NCBI GenBank assembly: GCA_015059495.1
Contig: SVAI01000001.1
Coordinates: 1,055,811-1,119,810 of the forward strand
Direction of reading: 5' to 3'
DNA length: 64,000 bases
DNA from: Bacillota bacterium
GTDB taxonomy: Bacteria; Bacillota_I; Bacilli_A; RF39; UBA660
Shown here: positions 6,554 through 50,213 of the stretch, piece by piece
Position numbering within the stretch: the stretch's first letter is position 1
Layout: every line of letters begins with the position of its first letter
Position numbers and translations under genes: made by a program
Notes under the pieces: model-generated
Databases searched by the model: none
Told to the model about the DNA's origin: nothing
Seen by the model: the letters and a program-made list of their open reading frames with translations, nothing else

Positions 6554-7099
6554 ATGAAAATTAAATATCTTATAATGATAATGCTTGCTGTCTTGAGTGT
6601 CTATATAATATATAATCATAACTATAATAAAAATATTAATATTTTATCTATATCAAGTGTTAAAGATAACTATAACCCCTTTCTATCTAATTATTTAACC
6701 AATAGTAATCTTAAATTTAATCTAAATATAGATTACTCTACTAACTTAGAAATAGAAAACCTTATTGGACTTATTAACAATAATAAAAATAAAATACAAA
6801 GTATAATTAATAATAGTGATATTATAATACTTAATATAGGTAATATTGATATCTTAACTGAAGATACTAAAACAATTATTAATGAATTAAAAGAACTATT
6901 TATATTACTTAGAAAAATAAATACTAAAGAAATAATATATATTAGTCCAAATAATATAAAAAATACTATTTATATAAAAGAATTATGCCAGAAATATAAT
7001 ATATTATTTATAAATAGTTCATCTTTTAATAATATTGAACAATTATCTAAAACTATATATCGTAAAATAGAAAGTCAATATAATGCTAAAAAGGATTGA
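6554..7099 (+). CDS. Hypothetical N/I-rich membrane-anchored protein
   Basis: 181 aa; N-terminal TM; no recognisable domain. Confidence 0.35.
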   Translation: MKIKYLIMIMLAVLSVYIIYNHNYNKNINILSISSVKDNYNPFLSNYLTNSNLKFNLNIDYSTNLEIENLIGLINNNKNKIQSIINNSDIIILNIGNIDILTEDTKTIINELKELFILLRKINTKEIIYISPNNIKNTIYIKELCQKYNILFINSSSFNNIEQLSKTIYRKIESQYNAKKD

Positions 7100-7123: not shown

Positions 7124-7182
7124 ACTCTAGGTAAATGAATTACTATGTTTAAAAATTAAACATGGCGAAAGGAGAAATTATC

Positions 7183-24399: not shown

Positions 24400-24503
24400 G
24401 TTATGTGAAAATTAAATGAAAACTAATTATATTTCTATAAAAAATGACGTTTTTTTATTGATTTTACTTGTTTTGTGGTATAATTTTTATAGGAGGTAAA
24501 ATA

Positions 24504-26161: not shown

Positions 26162-27727
26162 ATGAGTGAACTAGATAAAATACTTAAGAAAGCAGAAAAA
26201 GAACATGATACTTTAAAACATCCATATGTAGGTACTGAACATTTATTATTAGCATTACTTTCATATGATAATGAACTAACAGATTATTTAAAAGAATTTA
26301 ATTTAACTTATAATAAATTTAAAAGAAAATTAATAAATGTAATCGGAGAAGGTACAAAAAAGTCTGCTTATGTTCTTTATACACCTATGCTAAGAAAGGT
26401 TTTAAAAACTGCTAAAGATAATACTGATGAAATAACTTCAATAGATTTATTTAATTCTCTGTTAAATTCAAAAGAGGGTATAGCAATACGTTTACTAGAA
26501 GAATTAAATATTGATGTTGATAATATTGAATTTATTAACAACGAAGAAATAAAAATTACAAATAGAGATGAAGAAATTAACGAGATCTTTCAAATACTTA
26601 TGAGAAAGAATAAATGTAACCCATTGTTAATAGGAGATGCTGGAGTAGGTAAAACTGCAATAGTAGAAGAAGTAGAAAGAAGATTAAAGCATAACGAAGT
26701 ACCAACAAGCTTAATGGGATATAAAATAAAAAAAGTTGATCTATCATCAATACTAGCAGGTACTAAATATCGAGGAGATTTTGAAGATAAAATAAATAAA
26801 TTATTAACATCTATTGAAAACAAAAAGACTATTATATTTATAGATGAAATACATACTCTAGTAAATGCAGGTGGAGCAGAAGGAGCTATATCAGCAAGTG
26901 ATATCTTTAAACCATACCTAGCAAGAGGCAAAATAAAGTGCATCGGAGCAACAACCAATAAAGAATATAACGAATACTTTAAAACAGATGAAGCACTAAA
27001 CCGTAGATTTCAACAAGTAATAATTGATGAACCGGATAATAATAAAACTTTATCTATTTTAAAATCACTAAAAAAAGAATATGAAAAGTATCATAAAGTA
27101 TCAATAGATAATAATGTGTTAAATGAAATTATATACATATCATCAAAATATATAACTAATAAAAAGAATCCAGATAAATCAATTGAACTATTAGATTCCG
27201 TATGTACTAATGCAAGATTTAAAGAACAAAATAAAGTAAAAATGGATAATTTATACGATGTATTTAAATCTAGATATAAACTAGATATATCTAATAAACA
27301 TATAAGAAATATATTAGATAAAAAAGAAATCTTGTTAGCAACTAAAGATTTATTAACAACTATTAACTGCTCAAATATAATTTATATTGATGGAAATGAT
27401 TACAAGAATGATGAAGATCTTCTTAAATTATATGGTAACATAAAATCTAAAGAAGATTATATACTTAAAAAGGCATTAGAAAACCCTGTTGGAGTAATAA
27501 CTATAACAAATTATAATTATAATGAAATATTAAAAGAATTTATATTAAAATTAACATCTAATAGAAATGTATTAGATAATTTTGGTAACAATATTAATTT
27601 TAATAACTATATTATTATCATGGAAAAAACATCATCCAATAATTCAATAGGATTTACTACAAATACTAGTCAAAATAGTGTAATATATAAGGAAATAAAG
27701 CAAAAAACACTACTACCTAGTATATAA
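26162..27727 (+). CDS. ClpC/ClpB-like AAA+ protein with Clp-N repeats and D1 domain only (no D2)
   Basis: Clp_N repeats (HPYVGTEHLLLALL; second repeat around PMLRKVLKTAKD); D1 Walker A GDAGVGKTA, Walker B IIFIDEIHTL, sensor GATTNKEY..NRRF; C-terminal about 170 aa lacks any second Walker A. Confidence 0.55.
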   Translation: MSELDKILKKAEKEHDTLKHPYVGTEHLLLALLSYDNELTDYLKEFNLTYNKFKRKLINVIGEGTKKSAYVLYTPMLRKVLKTAKDNTDEITSIDLFNSLLNSKEGIAIRLLEELNIDVDNIEFINNEEIKITNRDEEINEIFQILMRKNKCNPLLIGDAGVGKTAIVEEVERRLKHNEVPTSLMGYKIKKVDLSSILAGTKYRGDFEDKINKLLTSIENKKTIIFIDEIHTLVNAGGAEGAISASDIFKPYLARGKIKCIGATTNKEYNEYFKTDEALNRRFQQVIIDEPDNNKTLSILKSLKKEYEKYHKVSIDNNVLNEIIYISSKYITNKKNPDKSIELLDSVCTNARFKEQNKVKMDNLYDVFKSRYKLDISNKHIRNILDKKEILLATKDLLTTINCSNIIYIDGNDYKNDEDLLKLYGNIKSKEDYILKKALENPVGVITITNYNYNEILKEFILKLTSNRNVLDNFGNNINFNNYIIIMEKTSSNNSIGFTTNTSQNSVIYKEIKQKTLLPSI

Positions 27728-34783: not shown

Positions 34784-34798
34784 TAGGGCATAAATGGG

Positions 34799-35168
34799 GT
34801 AGCTTATTGGTTTCGACAAGCTAGTCTTATGATAGATGTTTGCAAGTAGTCCGATATGACTTAAAACTGTCAAATTAAAATTAAATGACAAAAATGAAAG
34901 CTCTTTCGGAGCATTCACTCCTGTATTTGCCTAATTAAAGGTTGGGAGTTCTCTATCTTAGGTTCACCTATAGCTTAAGAATAGGGATCATATTTATAGG
35001 TTATATATTATAATTGATTAGGTTATAATACGAATCTTACTAATCTTAGTTAAAGAGTAGGTGTGTGATAGCCGGCGCTTTAATGAAATAATAATTATCA
35101 CTAAACTTGTAGATGATGTCTAATCATATAGTTTGGACAGGAGTTCGATTCTCCTCTACTCCACCAAA
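34799..35168 (+). ncRNA. ssrA: Transfer-messenger RNA (tmRNA, SsrA)
   Basis: 5' GGGGTAGCTTATTGGTTTCGACA and 3' GGACAGGAGTTCGATTCTCCTCTACTCCACCA; acceptor stem GGGGTAG/CTACTCC with the G3:U wobble alanine determinant; T-arm GTTCGATTC; in-frame tag reading ...gac aaa aat gaa agc tct ttc gga gca ttc act cct gta ttt gcc TAA (34887-34934) gives (A)DKNESSFGAFTPVFA. Confidence 0.85.
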
Positions 35169-35750: not shown

Positions 35751-36323
35751 ATGTACAAGTATTATTGTTATATAACTGAAAAAGGACCTATATACATTGT
35801 AAAGGAATTTGAGAAGGTAAATGGACAATTATTTCTAAAAAGAATGTTTGAATTTTATTCTCATGAACCAGTTGAAGAATACTATAATTATTTAATGTTT
35901 AATAAAGGAAATAAATACCTTAGATTTGGTGATTTTGAAATAGATAACGATGACTTTATTACTACTAACTCTCAAATAGTTGAATTAAGTTTATTTCAAC
36001 TAAGATGTATCACAAATGGTTATTTACATGAAGGTATTAATCCGGCTGAAGAAACAAAGAAAATAATTGAAAGTGGTATATCTAGAGAAGAAGCAGACGA
36101 AGCACTAAGAAGAAAATGGGAATCAAAGGTTAAATCTCAAGAAAATATAATTGCTAAAGAAAAAGAAGTGGCAGAAGTAGTAAAAAGATTAAAGAGAAGA
36201 AAAACAAATCATGAAATTGTTAGTAGAAGATCTAATACAAATACTACTGAGGAAGAAAAAAAATTAAAAACTTTTATGTACGTATTTGGAGATTTATTTG
36301 AAGAAGAAGAAATAAGATATTAA
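35751..36323 (+). CDS. Hypothetical protein with K/E-rich C-terminus
   Basis: 190 aa ORF with SD; no domain recognised. Confidence 0.35.
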   Translation: MYKYYCYITEKGPIYIVKEFEKVNGQLFLKRMFEFYSHEPVEEYYNYLMFNKGNKYLRFGDFEIDNDDFITTNSQIVELSLFQLRCITNGYLHEGINPAEETKKIIESGISREEADEALRRKWESKVKSQENIIAKEKEVAEVVKRLKRRKTNHEIVSRRSNTNTTEEEKKLKTFMYVFGDLFEEEEIRY

Positions 36324-36350
36324 AAAAACACTCTAACGAGTGTTTTTTAC
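36324..36350. terminator. Bidirectional terminator
   Basis: aaaaaacactctaacgagtgtttttt palindrome between convergent genes. Confidence 0.55.
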
Positions 36351-37568
36351 ATAACTATCATCTAAAACTTTATCAGATTCAACATTGACAGAAACTAATT
36401 TTACTTCATCATCAACAAATCTATAAATGTATACACCACCATCTTCTTTATTAGGTACATATTGCATTACATTACATACATAATTAGGATCACCTGCACC
36501 ACATGCGTATGAATAAGGTAAGAAACTTGTATCAGCAGGATTATCTAATACTTCTCTAGTAGTTTTACCTGTACCTGCTTCCATAGCAGCCATAACTTCA
36601 TAGAAATTACCATGACCTTTATTATAATATTCTAATATTGCAAACATGTTATCAGTATCTAATACATAAGCTGCATGAGCTAATATTATATTAATTGCAG
36701 CTATATTAGTAGGTGGATTAGTTAATTCTTTACTAGTAATAGTAATGTCAGCATTTTTATAATTTTCTGGTGTATCTGTAAATACAACAGTTATCCATTT
36801 ATTTTCATCATAATTATAAACTTTTAAAAGTTGTCCTTCCCATTCGGAGTGTTCTATTTGACCTTTATTACTACCTTTACCATGAGACTCTTGAGTATAT
36901 AATCCACATGCTACATATGGCGAAACACCATATTTTTTACCATATTTAATAAATTCATCTTTATATTCACTTTGAATATCTATTATTTCTTGTTCCATGG
37001 ATCTATCAACGATATCTAAAGATGCTGAAGGTATTACTTCTTGAACTACTTCTTCTTCAATTTTAGGTTCTTCTTGAATAGTTTCTTCAACAACATTATT
37101 TTCTTCTTTAATAGCTATTTGATTATCTATTTGTTCAAATTCGATACCTTCACTATATTTATTACTTAAATCTTCTTCTTTTAAATAAGTAGTAACTAAC
37201 ATACTAGCCATAACAATAGGTGCAACAACAACACCAACTTTACCGACTAAGTTATTACTAACTTTTTTACCTTTATGTTTCTTTTCCTGTATTTTTCTTT
37301 CATTTTCTTTTGCGGTTTTAATAGTATTATCTAAAAGATCTCTATATTTAGATAAAAAGAATTGAGTACAACCTTGAATTACTACATTATATCCGTGTTT
37401 ACTATTCTTAATAATAAGATTATTTCCTTTATTATATATCTTATTATTTTTAGTTTTATCAACTTCCTTTAAAAATTCAATAGCAAGATCTTGTTTAATT
37501 CGTTTGTTATTATTTCCATCTATACACAATAAGGAACCATCAAGTATTGTATAATATATATTATGCAA
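36333..37568 (-). CDS. Bitopic membrane protein with possible lytic-transglycosylase (SLT)-like extracytoplasmic domain
   Basis: 411 aa; TM VGKVGVVVAPIVMASMLVTTYL; YTQESHGKG and EYYNKGHGNF weakly resemble SLT ES... and AYNAG motifs. Confidence 0.3.
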   Translation of the reverse strand: MHNIYYTILDGSLLCIDGNNNKRIKQDLAIEFLKEVDKTKNNKIYNKGNNLIIKNSKHGYNVVIQGCTQFFLSKYRDLLDNTIKTAKENERKIQEKKHKGKKVSNNLVGKVGVVVAPIVMASMLVTTYLKEEDLSNKYSEGIEFEQIDNQIAIKEENNVVEETIQEEPKIEEEVVQEVIPSASLDIVDRSMEQEIIDIQSEYKDEFIKYGKKYGVSPYVACGLYTQESHGKGSNKGQIEHSEWEGQLLKVYNYDENKWITVVFTDTPENYKNADITITSKELTNPPTNIAAINIILAHAAYVLDTDNMFAILEYYNKGHGNFYEVMAAMEAGTGKTTREVLDNPADTSFLPYSYACGAGDPNYVCNVMQYVPNKEDGGVYIYRFVDDEVKLVSVNVESDKVLDDSYVKNTR

Positions 37569-37797
37569 TGTTAAACGCCTCCTTTAGTTTATCTAATAAA
37601 CTATTATCAATTTCTTTTAAGATAATTTTATTATCTACTATTTCATATTCACTAATATACATATTATCTTTATCAGCATATAGTACATAATATTTACCAT
37701 CTACTTCTTTAGAATCAATATATTCATAAGTCTTGCCATCTATTTTTATTTCAAAAGGATTCATAAATACACTTCCTATTCTGATAATATTATACAT
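37561..37797 (-). CDS. Small hypothetical protein, translationally coupled upstream of the SLT-like gene
   Basis: 78 aa; stop overlaps the downstream start (8-nt overlap). Confidence 0.3.
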   Translation of the reverse strand: MYNIIRIGSVFMNPFEIKIDGKTYEYIDSKEVDGKYYVLYADKDNMYISEYEIVDNKIILKEIDNSLLDKLKEAFNIA

Positions 37798-37889
37798 TAT
37801 AATTGTCCATTTTACACTACAAGTGTATAATTACTTTACATTATTAATATAAACATTTATACTTAATAATAGATAGGGAGGTATTAAAT

Positions 37890-38174
37890 ATGGCATTAAC
37901 TTATAGAGAACCAGACTATACTATTACACTAGAAAACTATACTGAAGAAAATGAAAAGTATCATACAGAGCAAATTAGATCTGTTCATTCAGTTGAAAAA
38001 GGATGGTTTGTTGGTGAACCAGAAAGAATAACTAGATCTGACGGTTCAGTTACATTAGTTTATGATTTACAAAAGTTTGATTCTGAAGAAGAAGCACGTC
38101 AAGAATATGCTAAAAATGGTATAGATTTAGATAAAGCAAAAGAAATTCAACAATTCCAAGGATATTCTAGATAG
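37890..38174 (+). CDS. Hypothetical small acidic protein
   Basis: 94 aa; GGGAGG SD. Confidence 0.35.
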   Translation: MALTYREPDYTITLENYTEENEKYHTEQIRSVHSVEKGWFVGEPERITRSDGSVTLVYDLQKFDSEEEARQEYAKNGIDLDKAKEIQQFQGYSR

Positions 38175-38235: not shown

Positions 38236-38946
38236 ATGAGAGTTTATGTGAAGAAAATAAATGATTATTTATTTGCTAAGGGTAAAGTCTTTGCAAAAGG
38301 TTTTTGTAAGGAAAAACTTTTCTTTATGTTCCTTTTTGGTTGTATCTTTGGTTGTGTATGGGAAGAACTACTAACTCTTATAGATACATACAAAAGATTT
38401 GGTGTACCAATATGGGAAACAAGAAGAGGAGTTTTATATGGAGAATTATCTCCAATATATGGCTTTGGATGTGTACTTTTACTAGTAATATTAATGCATA
38501 AAAAAAGAAACTTCTTTGAATACTTTGCTATAGGTGCATTAATAGGTGGAGTATATGAATACTTTATGTCATTCTTACAAGAAAAACTAACCGGAGCAGT
38601 ATCATGGGATTATTCAACATTAATGCTTAACATCAATGGTAGAACAACAATTCCATTCATGGCCTTCTGGGGATTACTTTCAGTAATATTCGTTTATGTA
38701 TTTTATCCACTCGTCTCGCACTTCATAGAAAAAATACCATATAACTTTGGTAGATTATTGTATCATGTACTAGTAGTTCTAGTAAGTTTAGATTTAGTAT
38801 TAACTTATGCAGCAGTTGCAAGACAAACACTAAGAAATGCTGGATATCCACCATATACACCAATAGGTAGGACTCTAGATAAATACTATCCAAACGAAAG
38901 AATTGCTAAAGCGTTTGTCAACGCACAATTTAAAGATAAAAATTAA
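38236..38946 (+). CDS. DUF1113/CmpB-like (putative ABC-transporter type IV) membrane protein
   Basis: LFGCIFGCVWEELLTLIDTYKRFGVPIWETRRGVLYGELSPIYGFGCVLLLVIL resembles the CmpB family; AAGGGG SD. Confidence 0.4.
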   Translation: MRVYVKKINDYLFAKGKVFAKGFCKEKLFFMFLFGCIFGCVWEELLTLIDTYKRFGVPIWETRRGVLYGELSPIYGFGCVLLLVILMHKKRNFFEYFAIGALIGGVYEYFMSFLQEKLTGAVSWDYSTLMLNINGRTTIPFMAFWGLLSVIFVYVFYPLVSHFIEKIPYNFGRLLYHVLVVLVSLDLVLTYAAVARQTLRNAGYPPYTPIGRTLDKYYPNERIAKAFVNAQFKDKN

Positions 38947-38966
38947 TAAAACAAATATAATTTAAT

Positions 38967-39599
38967 ATGAAAAAAATTATATTTGTTTTTTTATTATGTT
39001 TAATTTTAATTAATATTAATGTTAAAGGTTCACTATACTTATCAGGTAAATATATAATTATAGATCCCGGACATGGTTCAAAAGATAATGGTACATCATA
39101 TAACAATATTTTAGAAAAAGATTTAAATTTATCCATATCAAAGATATTAGAACAAGAATTAATAAAAAATGGGGCAAGCACAAACTTAGTCAGAGAAGAA
39201 GATTATGACTTATCTTCTCCTAATGCTAAACGAAGAAAAAGAAGTGATTTTAATAATCGAATAGATTTTATTAACAAGTCTAATGCTGATATCTATTTAT
39301 CAATACATATTAACTATTTAGAAAATAATAAGTATAGTGGCTCACAAGTATTTTATTATGGTGATAGTAATAAAGAATTAGCAAATACTATTCAAATGTA
39401 TTTAAACAAGATTAATACTCCTAGAAGTATTAAAGAAATGCCCAATGTATATATGTATAATAAATTAAATATAAAAGGAGTCTTAATAGAGTGTGGTTTT
39501 ATATCAAATATTAATGATAGAAATAACCTTATAAATAAAGATTATCAACAACTTTTAGCTAAGACCATAACAGATGCTTTAATAGATTATTTCACATAA
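38967..39599 (+). CDS. N-acetylmuramoyl-L-alanine amidase (Amidase_3, CwlD-like)
   Basis: Signal/TM; IIIDPGHGSKDNGTS, SIHINY, GVLIECGFISN zinc-amidase motifs. Confidence 0.7.
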   Translation: MKKIIFVFLLCLILININVKGSLYLSGKYIIIDPGHGSKDNGTSYNNILEKDLNLSISKILEQELIKNGASTNLVREEDYDLSSPNAKRRKRSDFNNRIDFINKSNADIYLSIHINYLENNKYSGSQVFYYGDSNKELANTIQMYLNKINTPRSIKEMPNVYMYNKLNIKGVLIECGFISNINDRNNLINKDYQQLLAKTITDALIDYFT

Positions 39600-39682
39600 T
39601 TTTCACATTATTTATATAAAAAAAACACTATAAAGGTATATCATTTAATTATCACATGTGGTATAATCTAACAGAATAGGTG

Positions 39683-40621
39683 ATGCATGTGGAAAAGACA
39701 TTTAAAACACTCGATGAGCAAGTATCCATATTAATTAAAAAGGGATTAATAATAAGTGATATCAACTATACTAAAGATGTTCTTTTAAGAGAGAACTACT
39801 TCTTTCTTATGGGTTATAGACACTTATTCTTCAAAAGTGAAAAGGATAGAGAATTCATTCCTGGAACTACTTTTGATGAACTATATTCAGTATTTAATTT
39901 TGATAGACGAATAAGAAATATCTTATTTAAAAATATCTTAATAGTAGAAAACAATGCTAAGAGTATATTTTCTTATCAATTATCTAAAAACTATGGATAT
40001 AGAGAAAAAGATTATATTAATCCAAGAAACTTTACTAAAGAAGCTAGTAGAAGAAGACAAGTAAATGATCTTTTAAAGAAAATGCAAAGACAAATAAGAA
40101 TCAATGGTGGACAACATAGTGCAACAATGCACTACTTAAGTAATTATGGTTACTTACCACTATGGATTGCAGTTAAAGTATTATCTTTTGGTATTGTATC
40201 TGAATTATTTACAATACTAAAACAAGAAGATCAACAAGCTATAGCACAAATATATGGAATACCAATTGATGATTTAATTCAATATTTTCCAATATTAGCA
40301 AATTATCGTAATCTATGTGCTCATGAAGATATTTTATTTGATCATAAATCTCAAAGAATAATTCAAGATACTAAATATCATAATTATTTGAATATTCCTA
40401 AAATGGATGGAGAATATATTTATGGTAAAGATGATCTATTTGCTTTAATAATAATATTAAAGAGAATTCTAAGAGATGAAAACTTCCATCAACTAATTCA
40501 AGAAATATCATATGAAATGGATATATTAAGCGGAAAACTTAAAACCATAACTATAGACAAAGTTATGGATATGATGGGATTCCCATCAAATTATAAAAAT
40601 ATACTAAGGACGGATTTATAA
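39683..40621 (+). CDS. Abi_2-family (AbiD/AbiF-like) abortive-infection-like protein
   Basis: Architecture and motifs (PLWIAVKVLSFGIVSELF, NYRNLCAHEDILFDHK) reminiscent of Pfam Abi_2; extended -10 TGgTATAAT at 39658-39667 just upstream. Confidence 0.5.
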   Translation: MHVEKTFKTLDEQVSILIKKGLIISDINYTKDVLLRENYFFLMGYRHLFFKSEKDREFIPGTTFDELYSVFNFDRRIRNILFKNILIVENNAKSIFSYQLSKNYGYREKDYINPRNFTKEASRRRQVNDLLKKMQRQIRINGGQHSATMHYLSNYGYLPLWIAVKVLSFGIVSELFTILKQEDQQAIAQIYGIPIDDLIQYFPILANYRNLCAHEDILFDHKSQRIIQDTKYHNYLNIPKMDGEYIYGKDDLFALIIILKRILRDENFHQLIQEISYEMDILSGKLKTITIDKVMDMMGFPSNYKNILRTDL

Positions 40622-40622
40622 T

Positions 40623-41717
40623 ATGAAAAAGAGTAATATAAGATTATTTATAGCAATTATTATTAGTTTAGCTATTGGTGCTGCAGGAATGTATTTCTTT
40701 ACTATTACTTTTGGTGCAACTACAATTATAAATAAGAGTGAAAAAGAAGTAACAGTAACTGATTCAGGTATTGCAGATGCTGTAGAAAAAGTATATGATT
40801 CAACAGTTATTGTTGAAGTATATAAAAATAATAAACTATATGGTTCAGGTTCAGGATTTATCTTCGAAAAAGATAATGATGTATATTATGTAATGACTAA
40901 TAACCATGTAGTAACTGAAGCTACTTCAGTAAAAATTATTTTAACTGATGGTTCAACATATGAGACAACTAAGATTGGCTCAGATCAATATTTAGATGTA
41001 GCAGTCTTATCATTTAAATCAGATAAAGATATCAAAGTAGCTGAAATAGGATCATCTGAATCTATGAGAGTAGGAGATACAGTATTTACTGTTGGAGCTC
41101 CAATTGATTCAAATACATATTCATGGACAGTAACTAGAGGTATTTTATCAGGTAAAGATAGAATGGTAAGTGTATCTACTTCTAACTCTACTGTTGCAGA
41201 TTACATAATGAAATCACTACAAACTGATGCTACTATTAACTCTGGTAACTCAGGTGGACCACTATGTAATGCTAATGGTCAAATTGTTGGAATCACAAAT
41301 ATGAAATTAGTTTCTTCATCAATCGAAGGTATGTCATTTGCTATTCCAATTGAACAAGCACTAACTTATGCTAAGAAATTAATGAAGGGTGAAGATACAA
41401 CAAGACCAACACTTGGAGTTCAAATGGCAGATTTAAGTGCAGCAAGTGCTTTATACTATAAATATAATATAATAATTCCAGATGATGTTGAAGAAGGAGT
41501 AGTAGTTGTAAAAGTTGTAGAAAAATCAGACGCTGAAAAAGCCGGAATCGAAGCTGGTGATATTATCACTAAAGTAGGAGAACAAAAAGTAACAACTATG
41601 GCACAACTAAAATATCAACTATATCAACATAATATTGGAGATAAATTAAATATTACTTTACTAAGAGATGGTAAAGAAAAGACAGTTGAAGTTACTTTAA
41701 CTAAAACTGAAAGCTAA
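40623..41717 (+). CDS. htrA: HtrA/DegP-family serine protease (trypsin-like + PDZ)
   Basis: N-terminal TM; catalytic triad context (TNNHVV, D, GNSGGPL); C-terminal PDZ; start 1 nt after the Abi_2 stop. Confidence 0.8.
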   Translation: MKKSNIRLFIAIIISLAIGAAGMYFFTITFGATTIINKSEKEVTVTDSGIADAVEKVYDSTVIVEVYKNNKLYGSGSGFIFEKDNDVYYVMTNNHVVTEATSVKIILTDGSTYETTKIGSDQYLDVAVLSFKSDKDIKVAEIGSSESMRVGDTVFTVGAPIDSNTYSWTVTRGILSGKDRMVSVSTSNSTVADYIMKSLQTDATINSGNSGGPLCNANGQIVGITNMKLVSSSIEGMSFAIPIEQALTYAKKLMKGEDTTRPTLGVQMADLSAASALYYKYNIIIPDDVEEGVVVVKVVEKSDAEKAGIEAGDIITKVGEQKVTTMAQLKYQLYQHNIGDKLNITLLRDGKEKTVEVTLTKTES

Positions 41718-41718
41718 A

Positions 41719-41745
41719 AGATAGCTAATGCTATCTTTTTTTTAT
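41719..41745 (+). terminator. Rho-independent terminator after htrA
   Basis: aagatagctaatgctatctt followed by a T-run. Confidence 0.6.
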
Positions 41746-41764
41746 TAATTATTATATAATTATT

Positions 41765-42154
41765 ATGGTGATTATTATGAAACAACTTAAAACAATATCA
41801 ATAGTATGGGGATTACTTATCCTTGTAGTATTTACATGTTTAACTATATTTGCTTTAAAATGGAAAAAAGATATTTATCCATATACTTTATTAGAAGACA
41901 AATTAGTAACAGCTACTAAGAAATTTTATGAACAAAAATATTCATATCCTGCTAAAGGTCAATCAACATATATAACTTATGATGAACTAAAAGAAAACGA
42001 AATGATTGATGAACTTAAAAAAGATGATGATACTTGTACAGGATTAGTTAAAGTTACTATGAATAATGTAGTTGAGTATAAAGCATATATTAAATGTGAT
42101 AAATATACAACAAAAGAATATGATAAATATATAGATTATATTAATAAAAAATAA
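41765..42154 (+). CDS. Hypothetical membrane-anchored protein
   Basis: 129 aa; N-terminal TM. Confidence 0.3.
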   Translation: MVIIMKQLKTISIVWGLLILVVFTCLTIFALKWKKDIYPYTLLEDKLVTATKKFYEQKYSYPAKGQSTYITYDELKENEMIDELKKDDDTCTGLVKVTMNNVVEYKAYIKCDKYTTKEYDKYIDYINKK

Positions 42155-42186
42155 TAGATATAATTTATATAAAGAAAGGACTAATT

Positions 42187-43282
42187 ATGGAAATTGAATT
42201 ATTAGAAAATAAAATAAATGATTATGAAGATAAATTAAATACAATCAGGAGGTCTCTTTGACTTAGACAAAAAAGAAAGTGAAATAGCTTCACTTGAACA
42301 AGAAATGTCTAAGGATAACTTTTGGGATGATATAGATAATGCTAATAAGATTAATCAAAAGTTAACTAATTTAAAAAAGAGTATTTCTTCATACAAAAAA
42401 TTAAATGATATGGTATCAACAAGTAAAGAAATGATACCACTAATTAAAGAAACAAATGATAATGATTTATATAATGAAACATTAAATGAATTAAATGGCT
42501 TAGAATCAGAAATAAGTGAACTTGAATTATCAACATTATTAAATGGTGAATATGATAGTTTAAATTGTTTCTTAGAAATACATCCTGGAGCAGGTGGAAC
42601 TGAGTCATGTGACTTTGCATCAATGCTTTACCGTATGTATACAAGATTCTTTGAAAAGAATGATTATAAATATGATGTAATAGATTTTGAAAAAGGTGAA
42701 GAAGCTGGAGTAAAATCAGTTACCTTACTAGTTAAAGGGTTTTATCCATATGGATATTTAAAAAATGAAACAGGTGTACATCGTCTTGTTAGAATTTCAC
42801 CATTTGATTCAAATGCTAGACGTCATACATCATTTGCTTCTGTTATGGTAACACCAGAATTTGATAATAATATAACAATAGATATTAAAGAAACAGATTT
42901 AAAAATAGATGTGTATCATTCATCTGGTGCAGGTGGACAATCAGTAAATACATCAAATAGTGCTGTACGTATTACACACTTACCAACAAAAACAGTTGTA
43001 ACATGCCAAGTTGAAAGATCTCAACTTAAAAACAAAGAGATGGCAATGCAAATGCTTAAATCAAAACTGTTCCAACAAGAATTAGCTAAACAACAAGAAA
43101 AGTTAAGTGACGTTAAAGGTCAAACTATGGAAATTAACTTTGGTTCACAAATAAGAAACTATGTCTTAGAACCATATAGACTAGTTAAAGATTTAAGAAG
43201 TAATTATGAAACTTCTAATACCGATAAAGTATTAGATGGTGATATAATGCCTATAATAGAATCTCTATTAAAAAATAAATAA
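42187..43282 (+). CDS. prfB: Peptide chain release factor 2 (programmed +1 frameshift)
   Basis: Frame 0: ATG 42187...AGGAGG TCT CTT TGA (stop 42259-61); +1 frame from GAC 42260 continues to 43282; SPF (RISPFDS) and GGQ motifs present. Confidence 0.85.
42247..42262 (+). other. prfB autoregulatory +1 frameshift site (internal SD AGGAGG + CTT TGA C)
   Basis: Canonical RF2 frameshift window AGGAGGtctCTTTGAC. Confidence 0.8.
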
Positions 43283-49544: not shown

Positions 49545-50213
49545 ATGAAGAAGAAATTAATAATAGTATTTGTAATAATAATTATTGCTTTAGCAGGATG
49601 CTTTATTTACTTTAAAATTAATAATAATAAATATTTATTTAAAGCATATCTAGAGGAACATAATGGTAACTATACACTAGTCATAAGAAATAAAGATTAC
49701 TTTAGTTTTAATGAAATGTGGAAAGTAGAAGATTTAACAAGAACAAATGGAAATTTCAAAATGCTTCCATGGACACTAGATTCTAGAATTAAAAAAATAA
49801 CAAAAGTAGATATTCAAGACAACATAAAAGTAGATTCACTTGCGTTATGGTTTTATGGATTTGAAAATCTAGAAGAAATAAAAGGATTAGATAAACTAGA
49901 TACATCATCATTAACTAATCTTTCAGCGGTATTTTACAATTGCAAATCTCTAAAAGAATTAGACTTAAGTATGTTGGATACAAGAAAAGTAACACTAACT
50001 GACAATATGTTTGCTAACTGTGAAAATTTAACTACTATATATGTTGGTGAAAATTGGAATATGGATAAAGTTGAAGAATCAACAGATATGTTTAAAGGAT
50101 GTACAAATCTAGTCGGACCAAATCAAACTGAATACAATGAATATGTTGTAGATAAATCATTTGCACAAGTAGATGATTTAGATAATGCTGGTTATTTAAC
50201 ACTTAAAAATTAA
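49545..50213 (+). CDS. BspA-type leucine-rich-repeat (LRR_5) lipoprotein
   Basis: Lipobox LAGC after signal peptide; repeats LTNLSAVFYNCKSLKELDLS..., MFANCENLTTIY, MFKGCTNL. Confidence 0.5.
   Translation: MKKKLIIVFVIIIIALAGCFIYFKINNNKYLFKAYLEEHNGNYTLVIRNKDYFSFNEMWKVEDLTRTNGNFKMLPWTLDSRIKKITKVDIQDNIKVDSLALWFYGFENLEEIKGLDKLDTSSLTNLSAVFYNCKSLKELDLSMLDTRKVTLTDNMFANCENLTTIYVGENWNMDKVEESTDMFKGCTNLVGPNQTEYNEYVVDKSFAQVDDLDNAGYLTLKN

Follow-up and report, generated by a model that had tools for sequence, protein, structure and literature searches.

In a stretch of 64,000 nucleotides (nt) from a Bacillota bacterium (RF39; UBA660; contig SVAI01000001.1 of assembly GCA_015059495.1, positions 1,055,811 to 1,119,810; 'the window' hereafter), a gene for a protein of the AbiD/AbiF abortive-infection family (abi) directly precedes a gene for an HtrA-type serine protease (htrA), and comparison across related genomes shows that abi became fixed as first cistron of the htrA operon before the lineage that carries it radiated, and that it is strongly constrained there. 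Here abi lacks a cis-encoded RNA antitoxin and stands behind a conserved regulator-type promoter. We favour, at roughly even chances, the reading that abi–htrA is a vertically inherited two-gene stress operon in which a domesticated AbiF-type HEPN RNase is co-expressed with HtrA.

The pairing recurs throughout this lineage. One genome per GTDB species was scanned and 199 genomes were found to encode a relative of Abi; our counts rest on the best 80 of these 199 (62–97% identity), all of which carry abi and whose hosts are uncultured Bacilli, 'Tenericutes' and 'Mycoplasma sp. CAG' metagenome-assembled genomes (MAGs) from gut and digesters (NCBI labels of this large, low-GC lineage: Bacilli, Tenericutes, Mycoplasma sp. 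CAG:956 and CAG:472, Coprobacillus sp. CAG:605, Ca. Coprovivens). The window's own Abi protein had no exact match in the contig index, and homologues were used instead. An HtrA orthologue lies directly 3′ of abi in 77 of the 80 species loci (tblastn); among the other three, the contig stops at abi in two (L014, L066) and htrA has been deleted in one (L053), so that the two genes adjoin in 77 of the 78 species genomes that are informative, far above chance. The distance from the abi stop to the htrA start lies between −14 and +10 nt in 77/77 loci (mostly −11, −1, +1 or +2), and in most species a GAGG/AAGGA element, the htrA Shine–Dalgarno sequence, falls within the 3′ end of abi. Upstream, a cwlD-like gene is found within the fetched locus in 67 of the 80. 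The pair is also kept in metagenome contigs with 81%- and 72%-identical Abi proteins, which have differing downstream genes (GH25, MiaB-like) and the rplM–rpsI–cwlD backbone, and in P0121, a deep branch (57% identity) that forms the only other close cluster at 50% identity, where the order is cwlD–abi–htrA with a 4-nt overlap. An initial sequence-only reading of the window had raised the question of whether the adjacency recurs elsewhere; it does so strongly in this one lineage, but in none of 80 loci of more distant Abi_2 proteins (27–37% identity) does an HtrA gene lie within 4 kb.

Within the window, abi occupies 39689–40621 of the + strand and encodes a cytoplasmic, full-length AbiD/AbiF-family HEPN protein of 310 amino acids (aa). 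In its longest form the reading frame runs from 39680 to 40621, on the same strand as htrA (40623–41717); we place the start at the GTG at 39689, rather than at 39680 or 39683, because close homologues are all 308–316 aa long and share the N-terminus M-E/I-K-T. The abi TAA (40619–40621) is separated by a single nucleotide from the htrA ATG at 40623, and the htrA Shine–Dalgarno AAGGA (40606–40610, +) is embedded in the last abi codons. The htrA product has the hallmarks of the HtrA/DegP family, with a transmembrane anchor at residues 8–26, the His-Asp-Ser triad motifs NNHV (93), DVAV (125) and GNSGGP (208), and one C-terminal PDZ domain (Pfam Trypsin_2, E=4e-30; PDZ_2, E=2.9e-19); its top NCBIfam model is degP_htrA_DO (TIGR02037), at 262.8 bits and thus under the 416.2 cut-off of that two-PDZ model. 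PADLOC matches of HtrA to RT-Protease_XI, LmuA and PDC-S45 were dismissed, as they reflect the generic trypsin domain only and form no system. An intrinsic terminator with a 10-bp stem, a 4-nt loop and a T-run (41716–41739, +) straddles the htrA stop and closes the two-gene operon; it is the sole terminator-like site on the + strand within 38900–42400. Several features described by the sequence-only reading are thereby confirmed, namely the Abi_2 (AbiD/AbiF-like) character of the first gene (see below), the 1-nt gap to a membrane-anchored trypsin/PDZ protease and a terminator placed only after the protease gene. Others needed adjustment: the abi gene and its short leader stand, but not its length of 313 aa from 39683, and the extended −10 element proposed for it exists at 39659–39667 rather than at 39658–39667.

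That Abi is a member of the Pfam Abi_2/AbiD–AbiF family is established by profile, motif and fold. Against Pfam Abi_2 (PF07751; cut-off 25.6 bits) the protein scores 137.5 bits (E=8e-40), with profile positions 2–184 of 184 covered. It also matches positions 4–276 of 277 of the PADLOC AbiD model (E=4.5e-54) and, by sequence, the PDB entry 8VZ6 ('Abi family protein', E=4.7e-16). Its AlphaFold2 model (predicted local distance difference test score, 91.7) has a sole significant PDB match in Foldseek, chain 8VZ6_A, PbAbiF, which it follows over its full length (E=7e-11, TM 0.75/0.78, 313 aligned columns). Hydrophobicity along Abi peaks in the core helix PLW(I/V)xVKVLSFG, which is common to the family and is not a membrane span. 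The HEPN motif R207-N-L-C-A-H212 (Rx4H; 40307–40324, +) aligns with RNSCCH of 8VZ6, and R207, N208, C210, A211 and H212 are invariant in an alignment of 37 sequences from the HtrA-linked clade and an outgroup of other Abi_2 proteins. An equivalent R/H pair is needed for the toxicity of AbiF_Cd and the activity of PbAbiF (PMC12373285), and with its Rx4H site kept Abi looks catalytically competent.

The divergence of abi follows that of its neighbours. Between pairs of loci, the identity of Abi is correlated with that of HtrA (r=0.79) and of CwlD (r=0.65), similarly to HtrA with CwlD (r=0.83), as expected for co-inheritance. With the window as reference, Abi is better conserved than HtrA in 77/77 loci, than CwlD in 67/67 and than release factor 2 (RF2) in four of five, the last a small sample; across 2016 pairs it is better conserved than HtrA in 98%. 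The median non-synonymous divergence (dN) is 0.24 for abi vs 0.41 for htrA, where only relative dN values are used, as synonymous divergence (dS) is saturated (~1–1.5) and dN/dS unreliable. The GC content is flat, at ~25%, across the locus, and the surrounding genes are housekeeping genes (typA, cysS, the transfer-messenger RNA (tmRNA) gene, cwlD, prfB, yitT, tilS and ftsH; prfB, tilS and ftsH were identified by reading translations, the scanned neighbours by profile).

A mobile or patchy mode of life, as expected of a defence gene, was not found for the clade. Its Abi gave no match among the 2.9 million viral contigs of IMG/VR, against 332 for an outgroup profile, and phage and plasmid records contain no close relative of it, all matches being below 31% identity. 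The nearest outgroup Abi_2 genes, by contrast, lie in prophage- or island-like surroundings, flanked by endolysin, XRE-repressor, SocA/Panacea and integrase genes and by tRNAs. The clade thus departs from the usual behaviour of the family: in a study of AbiF in C. difficile (PLoS Genetics 2025), abiF presence was patchy and mobilome and defence neighbours were enriched, and the function of chromosome-encoded copies was left as unknown. A relic of a prophage endolysin–abiF pair was considered for cwlD–abi and rejected in view of the hydrophobic signal- or anchor-like segment at the N-terminus of the amidase and of the rplM–rpsI-...-cwlD synteny, a gene order also known from B. subtilis.

AbiF systems are type III toxin–antitoxin modules whose antitoxin is a structured non-coding RNA (ncRNA) encoded just upstream of the toxin gene (PMC12373285, PMC12737573), and the region upstream of abi was therefore compared between 78 loci of the HtrA-linked clade and 68 outgroup loci. 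The median upstream non-coding gap is 92 nt in the clade and 206 nt in the outgroup, the median fold z-score of the upstream 150 nt is −0.54 vs −2.54, and the share of loci with z below −2 is 13% vs 64%. Within 100 nt from the predicted transcription start we found no stable or conserved fold, with z scattered around 0 in 24 species, and a leader hairpin that would mask the Shine–Dalgarno sequence in translational control of the AbiD1 type was rejected on this ground. The Rfam abiF motif (RF03085) was detected neither in the window nor in the clade loci, a negative that is uninformative alone because RF03085 was equally missed in 20 outgroup loci, and we rely instead on the contrast in gap and fold z-score. 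By this contrast the clade has no cis-encoded structured ncRNA antitoxin of the AbiFr/abiF-motif kind. Lacking both the RNA antitoxin and the mobile context, the abi–htrA locus falls outside the AbiF toxin–antitoxin and defence class as defined. As for the outgroup Abi_2 genes themselves (L091–L170, L173, L174 and L176), the 150 nt upstream of them are strongly structured, and since RF03085 went undetected in the 20 scanned, this suggests that these structures are AbiFr-type RNAs outside the current Rfam model.

In place of an RNA gene, the region upstream of abi holds a compact and conserved promoter. In the window, an extended −10 element, TGGTATAAT, lies at 39659–39667 (+) and is followed by the abi Shine–Dalgarno AGGTGAT (39678–39684, +), leaving a leader of ~15 nt from the predicted transcription start. 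A TGnTATAAT-type element occurs 19–32 nt before the abi start in 76 of the 80 species loci, most of the 79 distinct upstream sequences have A(T)AGGTGA 8–15 nt after the −10 element, ahead of the start, and a TTGACA-like −35 element is absent. At the −35 position stands instead a direct repeat with 11-bp period, TATCAT-N5-TATCAC (39639–39655, +), which may be a second operator or an atypical −35. Its TATCAT is conserved across the clade ~17–22 nt upstream of the −10, at a distance that differs by 5 nt from subclade to subclade; relative to the distal box described next, TATCAT stays a constant ~51 nt downstream in most loci with such a box.

This distal box, TTTCACA-N4-TTTCACA (39590–39607, +), is likewise a direct repeat with 11-bp period, and its first TTTCACA is overlapped by the 3′ end of cwlD (last codons YFT and stop). 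It is the only zero-mismatch site in the window, and its core equals the CssR octamer of B. subtilis, TTTTCACA, the canonical CssR box (PMC6749698). In the form TTCAY-N6-TTCAY at a fixed −71/−76 offset from the −10, the box is present in 48 of the 80 loci, against 1.2% of background windows, and it is kept with either upstream gene, a co-directional cwlD or a divergent phospholipase gene. Direct repeats of the regulator-box kind thus do precede the promoter of the htrA operon, as candidate sites of an OmpR-family response regulator, of which CssR is one fit among others. WalR- or CiaR-type boxes are similar enough to the distal box that CssR cannot be told from these related regulators. Judged on sequence, the 11-bp phasing and weak −35 would fit a promoter activated by an OmpR-family protein. 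A second box-like site (24404–24421, two mismatches) was dismissed, as it lies within the chance expectation of 1.65 sites. In loci with the divergent upstream gene, which encodes a Zn-dependent phospholipase C (L004–L009, L028 and similar), TTTCAC boxes lie ~100 nt upstream of abi between back-to-back extended −10 promoters (TGTTATAAT, minus strand), so that the phospholipase gene may be under the same regulator as well.

If abi–htrA is a stress operon, it is plausible that envelope or secretion stress would turn on its promoter, and that ribosomes would read abi and re-initiate on htrA, so that both proteins would be made together. Outside the membrane, HtrA would remove misfolded exported proteins; inside, the Abi RNase would cut cytoplasmic RNA, by which translation, and hence secretory load, would be transiently lowered or growth arrested. 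Tight transcriptional control would here stand in for the RNA antitoxin. What the analysis shows directly is the identity, fold and catalytic motif of Abi, the anatomy and conservation of the operon, the lack of the RNA region, and the promoter with its boxes; in the scheme above we infer the identity of the regulator, the RNase activity of Abi, its RNA targets and its physiological role. A more specific form of the scheme, by analogy with IRE1 and regulated IRE1-dependent decay (RIDD), would place an antitoxin-free AbiF RNase and HtrA under one envelope- or secretion-stress regulator, coupling degradation outside the cell membrane to mRNA cleavage inside; we put this forward tentatively and think it rather doubtful.

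Several observations weigh against a stress operon of this kind. The species in our counts are related and are not independent events. In L053 (MGBC127997, an uncultured-Bacilli MAG; positions 6900–7030) abi is intact and htrA is reduced to a four-codon remnant (MEIK and stop) and a terminator, followed by the MiaB-like gene, from which it appears that Abi has no strict need for HtrA in cis; and the cytoplasmic N-terminal tail of HtrA is unconserved, which argues against direct contact between the two proteins. The strict box pattern holds in only 48 of the 80 loci, with degenerate versions elsewhere, and the box also differs by one mismatch per half-site from the WalR consensus on the other strand, such that the label 'CssR-like' is not exclusive. 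A crude regular-expression search for H- and G-boxes found no two-component system in the 64-kb window, where Pfam matches of ten open reading frames (ORFs) are to housekeeping genes only, and none was found beside the operon in the inspected metagenome contigs (those with 81% and 72% identity) or at the P0121 locus. It is also hard to explain how a core operon could carry an active HEPN toxin with no antitoxin, unless the toxin is specific by nature or kept under tight repression. Finally, all hosts are uncultured MAGs, and the function of abi–htrA is one that we infer throughout.

Among other explanations, abi might be a fixed abortive-infection gene, in which phage adsorption, injection or lysis disturbs the envelope and so fires the envelope-stress promoter, the Abi RNase then killing the infected cell or halting its growth, with HtrA merely sharing the promoter. 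We consider this somewhat unlikely. Genes for defence are as a rule patchy in distribution, mobile and quick to evolve, while abi is syntenic in 80 of 80 species, is absent from the viral, phage and plasmid collections and is better conserved than HtrA, CwlD and RF2; it has no antitoxin RNA region, and a suicide toxin fired at every envelope stress would be costly. On the other side, Abi is a full-length AbiD/AbiF homologue with an intact Rx4H site, an envelope-stress-type promoter is plausible as an infection sensor, members of the AbiF family have been proven to act as toxins and in defence (PMC12373285, PMC12737573), and abiF genes elsewhere often go with modules for envelope lysis (C. difficile AbiF study). 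The sequence-only reading had named the pair a candidate for phage defence or stress-triggered suicide: the defence half is weakened by the missing cis RNA antitoxin region, the slow evolution and the absence of mobile, defence or viral context, and the stress-triggered half fits better, because conserved CssR-type boxes precede an activator-type promoter. Its alternative, that abi had inserted into the promoter region of htrA, is probably right as history, though the event is ancient and fixed rather than incidental. Another explanation is an entrenched passenger, a mobile abiF that landed between htrA and its promoter in an ancestor and was kept mainly because htrA came to depend on it through promoter capture and translational coupling, or by residual addiction, with no stress function of its own. 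In favour of it, the regulatory boxes and the promoter stand before abi, no promoter is visible for htrA itself, the Shine–Dalgarno sequence and start of htrA are embedded in the 3′ end of abi, and relatives of Abi are mobile. Polar dependence, however, would keep only the 3′ end and the frame of abi, and the whole protein, catalytic motif included, is more constrained than HtrA, and L053 keeps an intact abi despite the loss of htrA; we therefore hold this explanation to be quite unlikely.

It is also conceivable, if very unlikely in our view, that Abi is an autoregulator of the operon that binds or cleaves abi–htrA mRNA to set HtrA levels and is no global RNase. In its favour, translational coupling fixes the stoichiometry of the two products, PbAbiF binds and processes its own cognate RNA (PMC12737573), and Noone and colleagues are reported to have found in 2000 that htrA of B. 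subtilis is negatively autoregulated. Against it, no conserved structured element was found in the leader, and an intact catalytic dyad together with very high conservation of the whole protein would be superfluous for simple binding. Finally, an adjacency by chance, or by an insertion that is recent and confined to this genome, would find a precedent only in the general mobility of the Abi_2 family, and its probability is negligible, as it is refuted by the 77/78 adjacency, the constant junction geometry, the divergence correlated with that of the neighbours and the flat GC content.

Other features of the window were also noted. The upstream neighbour of abi (38967–39599, +) encodes a cwlD-like N-acetylmuramoyl-L-alanine amidase (Pfam Amidase_3, E=3.3e-40; top NCBIfam model spore_cwlD, under its cut-off). 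Further upstream lies the tmRNA gene (34796–35166, 125.6 bits), with the same tmRNA upstream in a 97% relative (L011). Four ORFs, of 190, 411, 78 and 94 aa and lying on both strands, come after it at 35751–38174, and the three that were scanned, all but the 78-aa ORF, had no Pfam match; tmRNA genes are common integration sites, and these ORFs may be a remnant island. Downstream of htrA, prfB (42188–43282) carries, within 42188–42265, the classic programmed +1 frameshift site of RF2, with its ATG at 42188 and the sequence AGGAGG TCT CTT TGA C at ~42247–42262, which is why a list of ORFs shows only the downstream frame of 325 aa. At 26162–27727 is a gene for a 521-aa protein with Clp_N, a single AAA and AAA_lid_9, approximately the N-terminal half of a ClpC/ClpB-type ATPase, and this ORF may represent a chaperone gene that was truncated or split. 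An L31-Firmicutes ribosomal leader (7143–7174, 37.5 bits) and an ORF for a DUF285/BspA-type leucine-rich-repeat protein resembling 'Mycoplasma' surface proteins (49545–50213) are together consistent with placement of the host among relatives of the Mollicutes.

We found no report of an Abi–HtrA operon in the literature, where matches linking Abi_2 and HtrA were unrelated papers on human ABI2; the closest hint is the mention of 'posttranslational modification' genes downstream of some abiF genes (C. difficile AbiF study). AbiD/AbiF proteins are catalogued as mobile toxins of phage defence and regarded as ancestors of Cas13, and here such a protein is a core gene in at least 199 species-level genomes, which offers a concrete and testable instance of a defence toxin exapted to host physiology and predicts a cytoplasmic, RNA-level arm in the Gram-positive envelope stress response. 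Were the IRE1/RIDD-like form of this idea true, no earlier case would be on record in which a toxin of the AbiF/Cas13-ancestor kind was exapted into a core response to stress. Censuses of the PADLOC or DefenseFinder type will score each genome of this abundant gut lineage as carrying 'AbiD' defence, which the context suggests is probably wrong.

Compared with known AbiF/AbiD type III systems (AbiD, AbiD1 and AbiF of L. lactis, AbiF_Cd–RCd22 of C. difficile, PbAbiF–AbiFr and 8VZ6), clade Abi shares full-length homology, the fold and the RNxCAH HEPN motif. In contrast to these systems, clade abi has no cis structured ncRNA, lies off prophages, plasmids and islands, is syntenic rather than patchy, evolves more slowly than its neighbours and is translationally coupled to htrA, an association seen in 0/80 of the other Abi_2 loci. 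With the CssRS htrA/htrB regulon of B. subtilis, and with streptococcal CiaRH–htrA, the operon shares a membrane-anchored HtrA behind direct repeats with a TTTTCACA core; it differs in having a HEPN RNase gene as first cistron, and no cognate two-component system was identified for it. According to a 2025 review, CssRS is a secretion- and heat-stress system that induces htrA and htrB in B. subtilis, and Gram-positives as a rule place htrA under a two-component system; at keyword level its section on Gram-positive htrA loci makes no mention of an Abi-family neighbour (PMC12826053). The third comparison is with the KEN RNases of IRE1 and RNase L, known from the eukaryotic unfolded-protein response and RIDD. 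KEN belongs to the HEPN superfamily and, under overload of the secretory compartment, breaks down mRNAs associated with membranes (PMC3710099). Homology to these proteins goes no further than the HEPN superfamily, and unlike them Abi lacks a membrane anchor and any sensor or kinase domain. The likeness, which we offer as a hypothesis, is one of function only, here with a HEPN RNase co-expressed with an extracytoplasmic quality-control protease.

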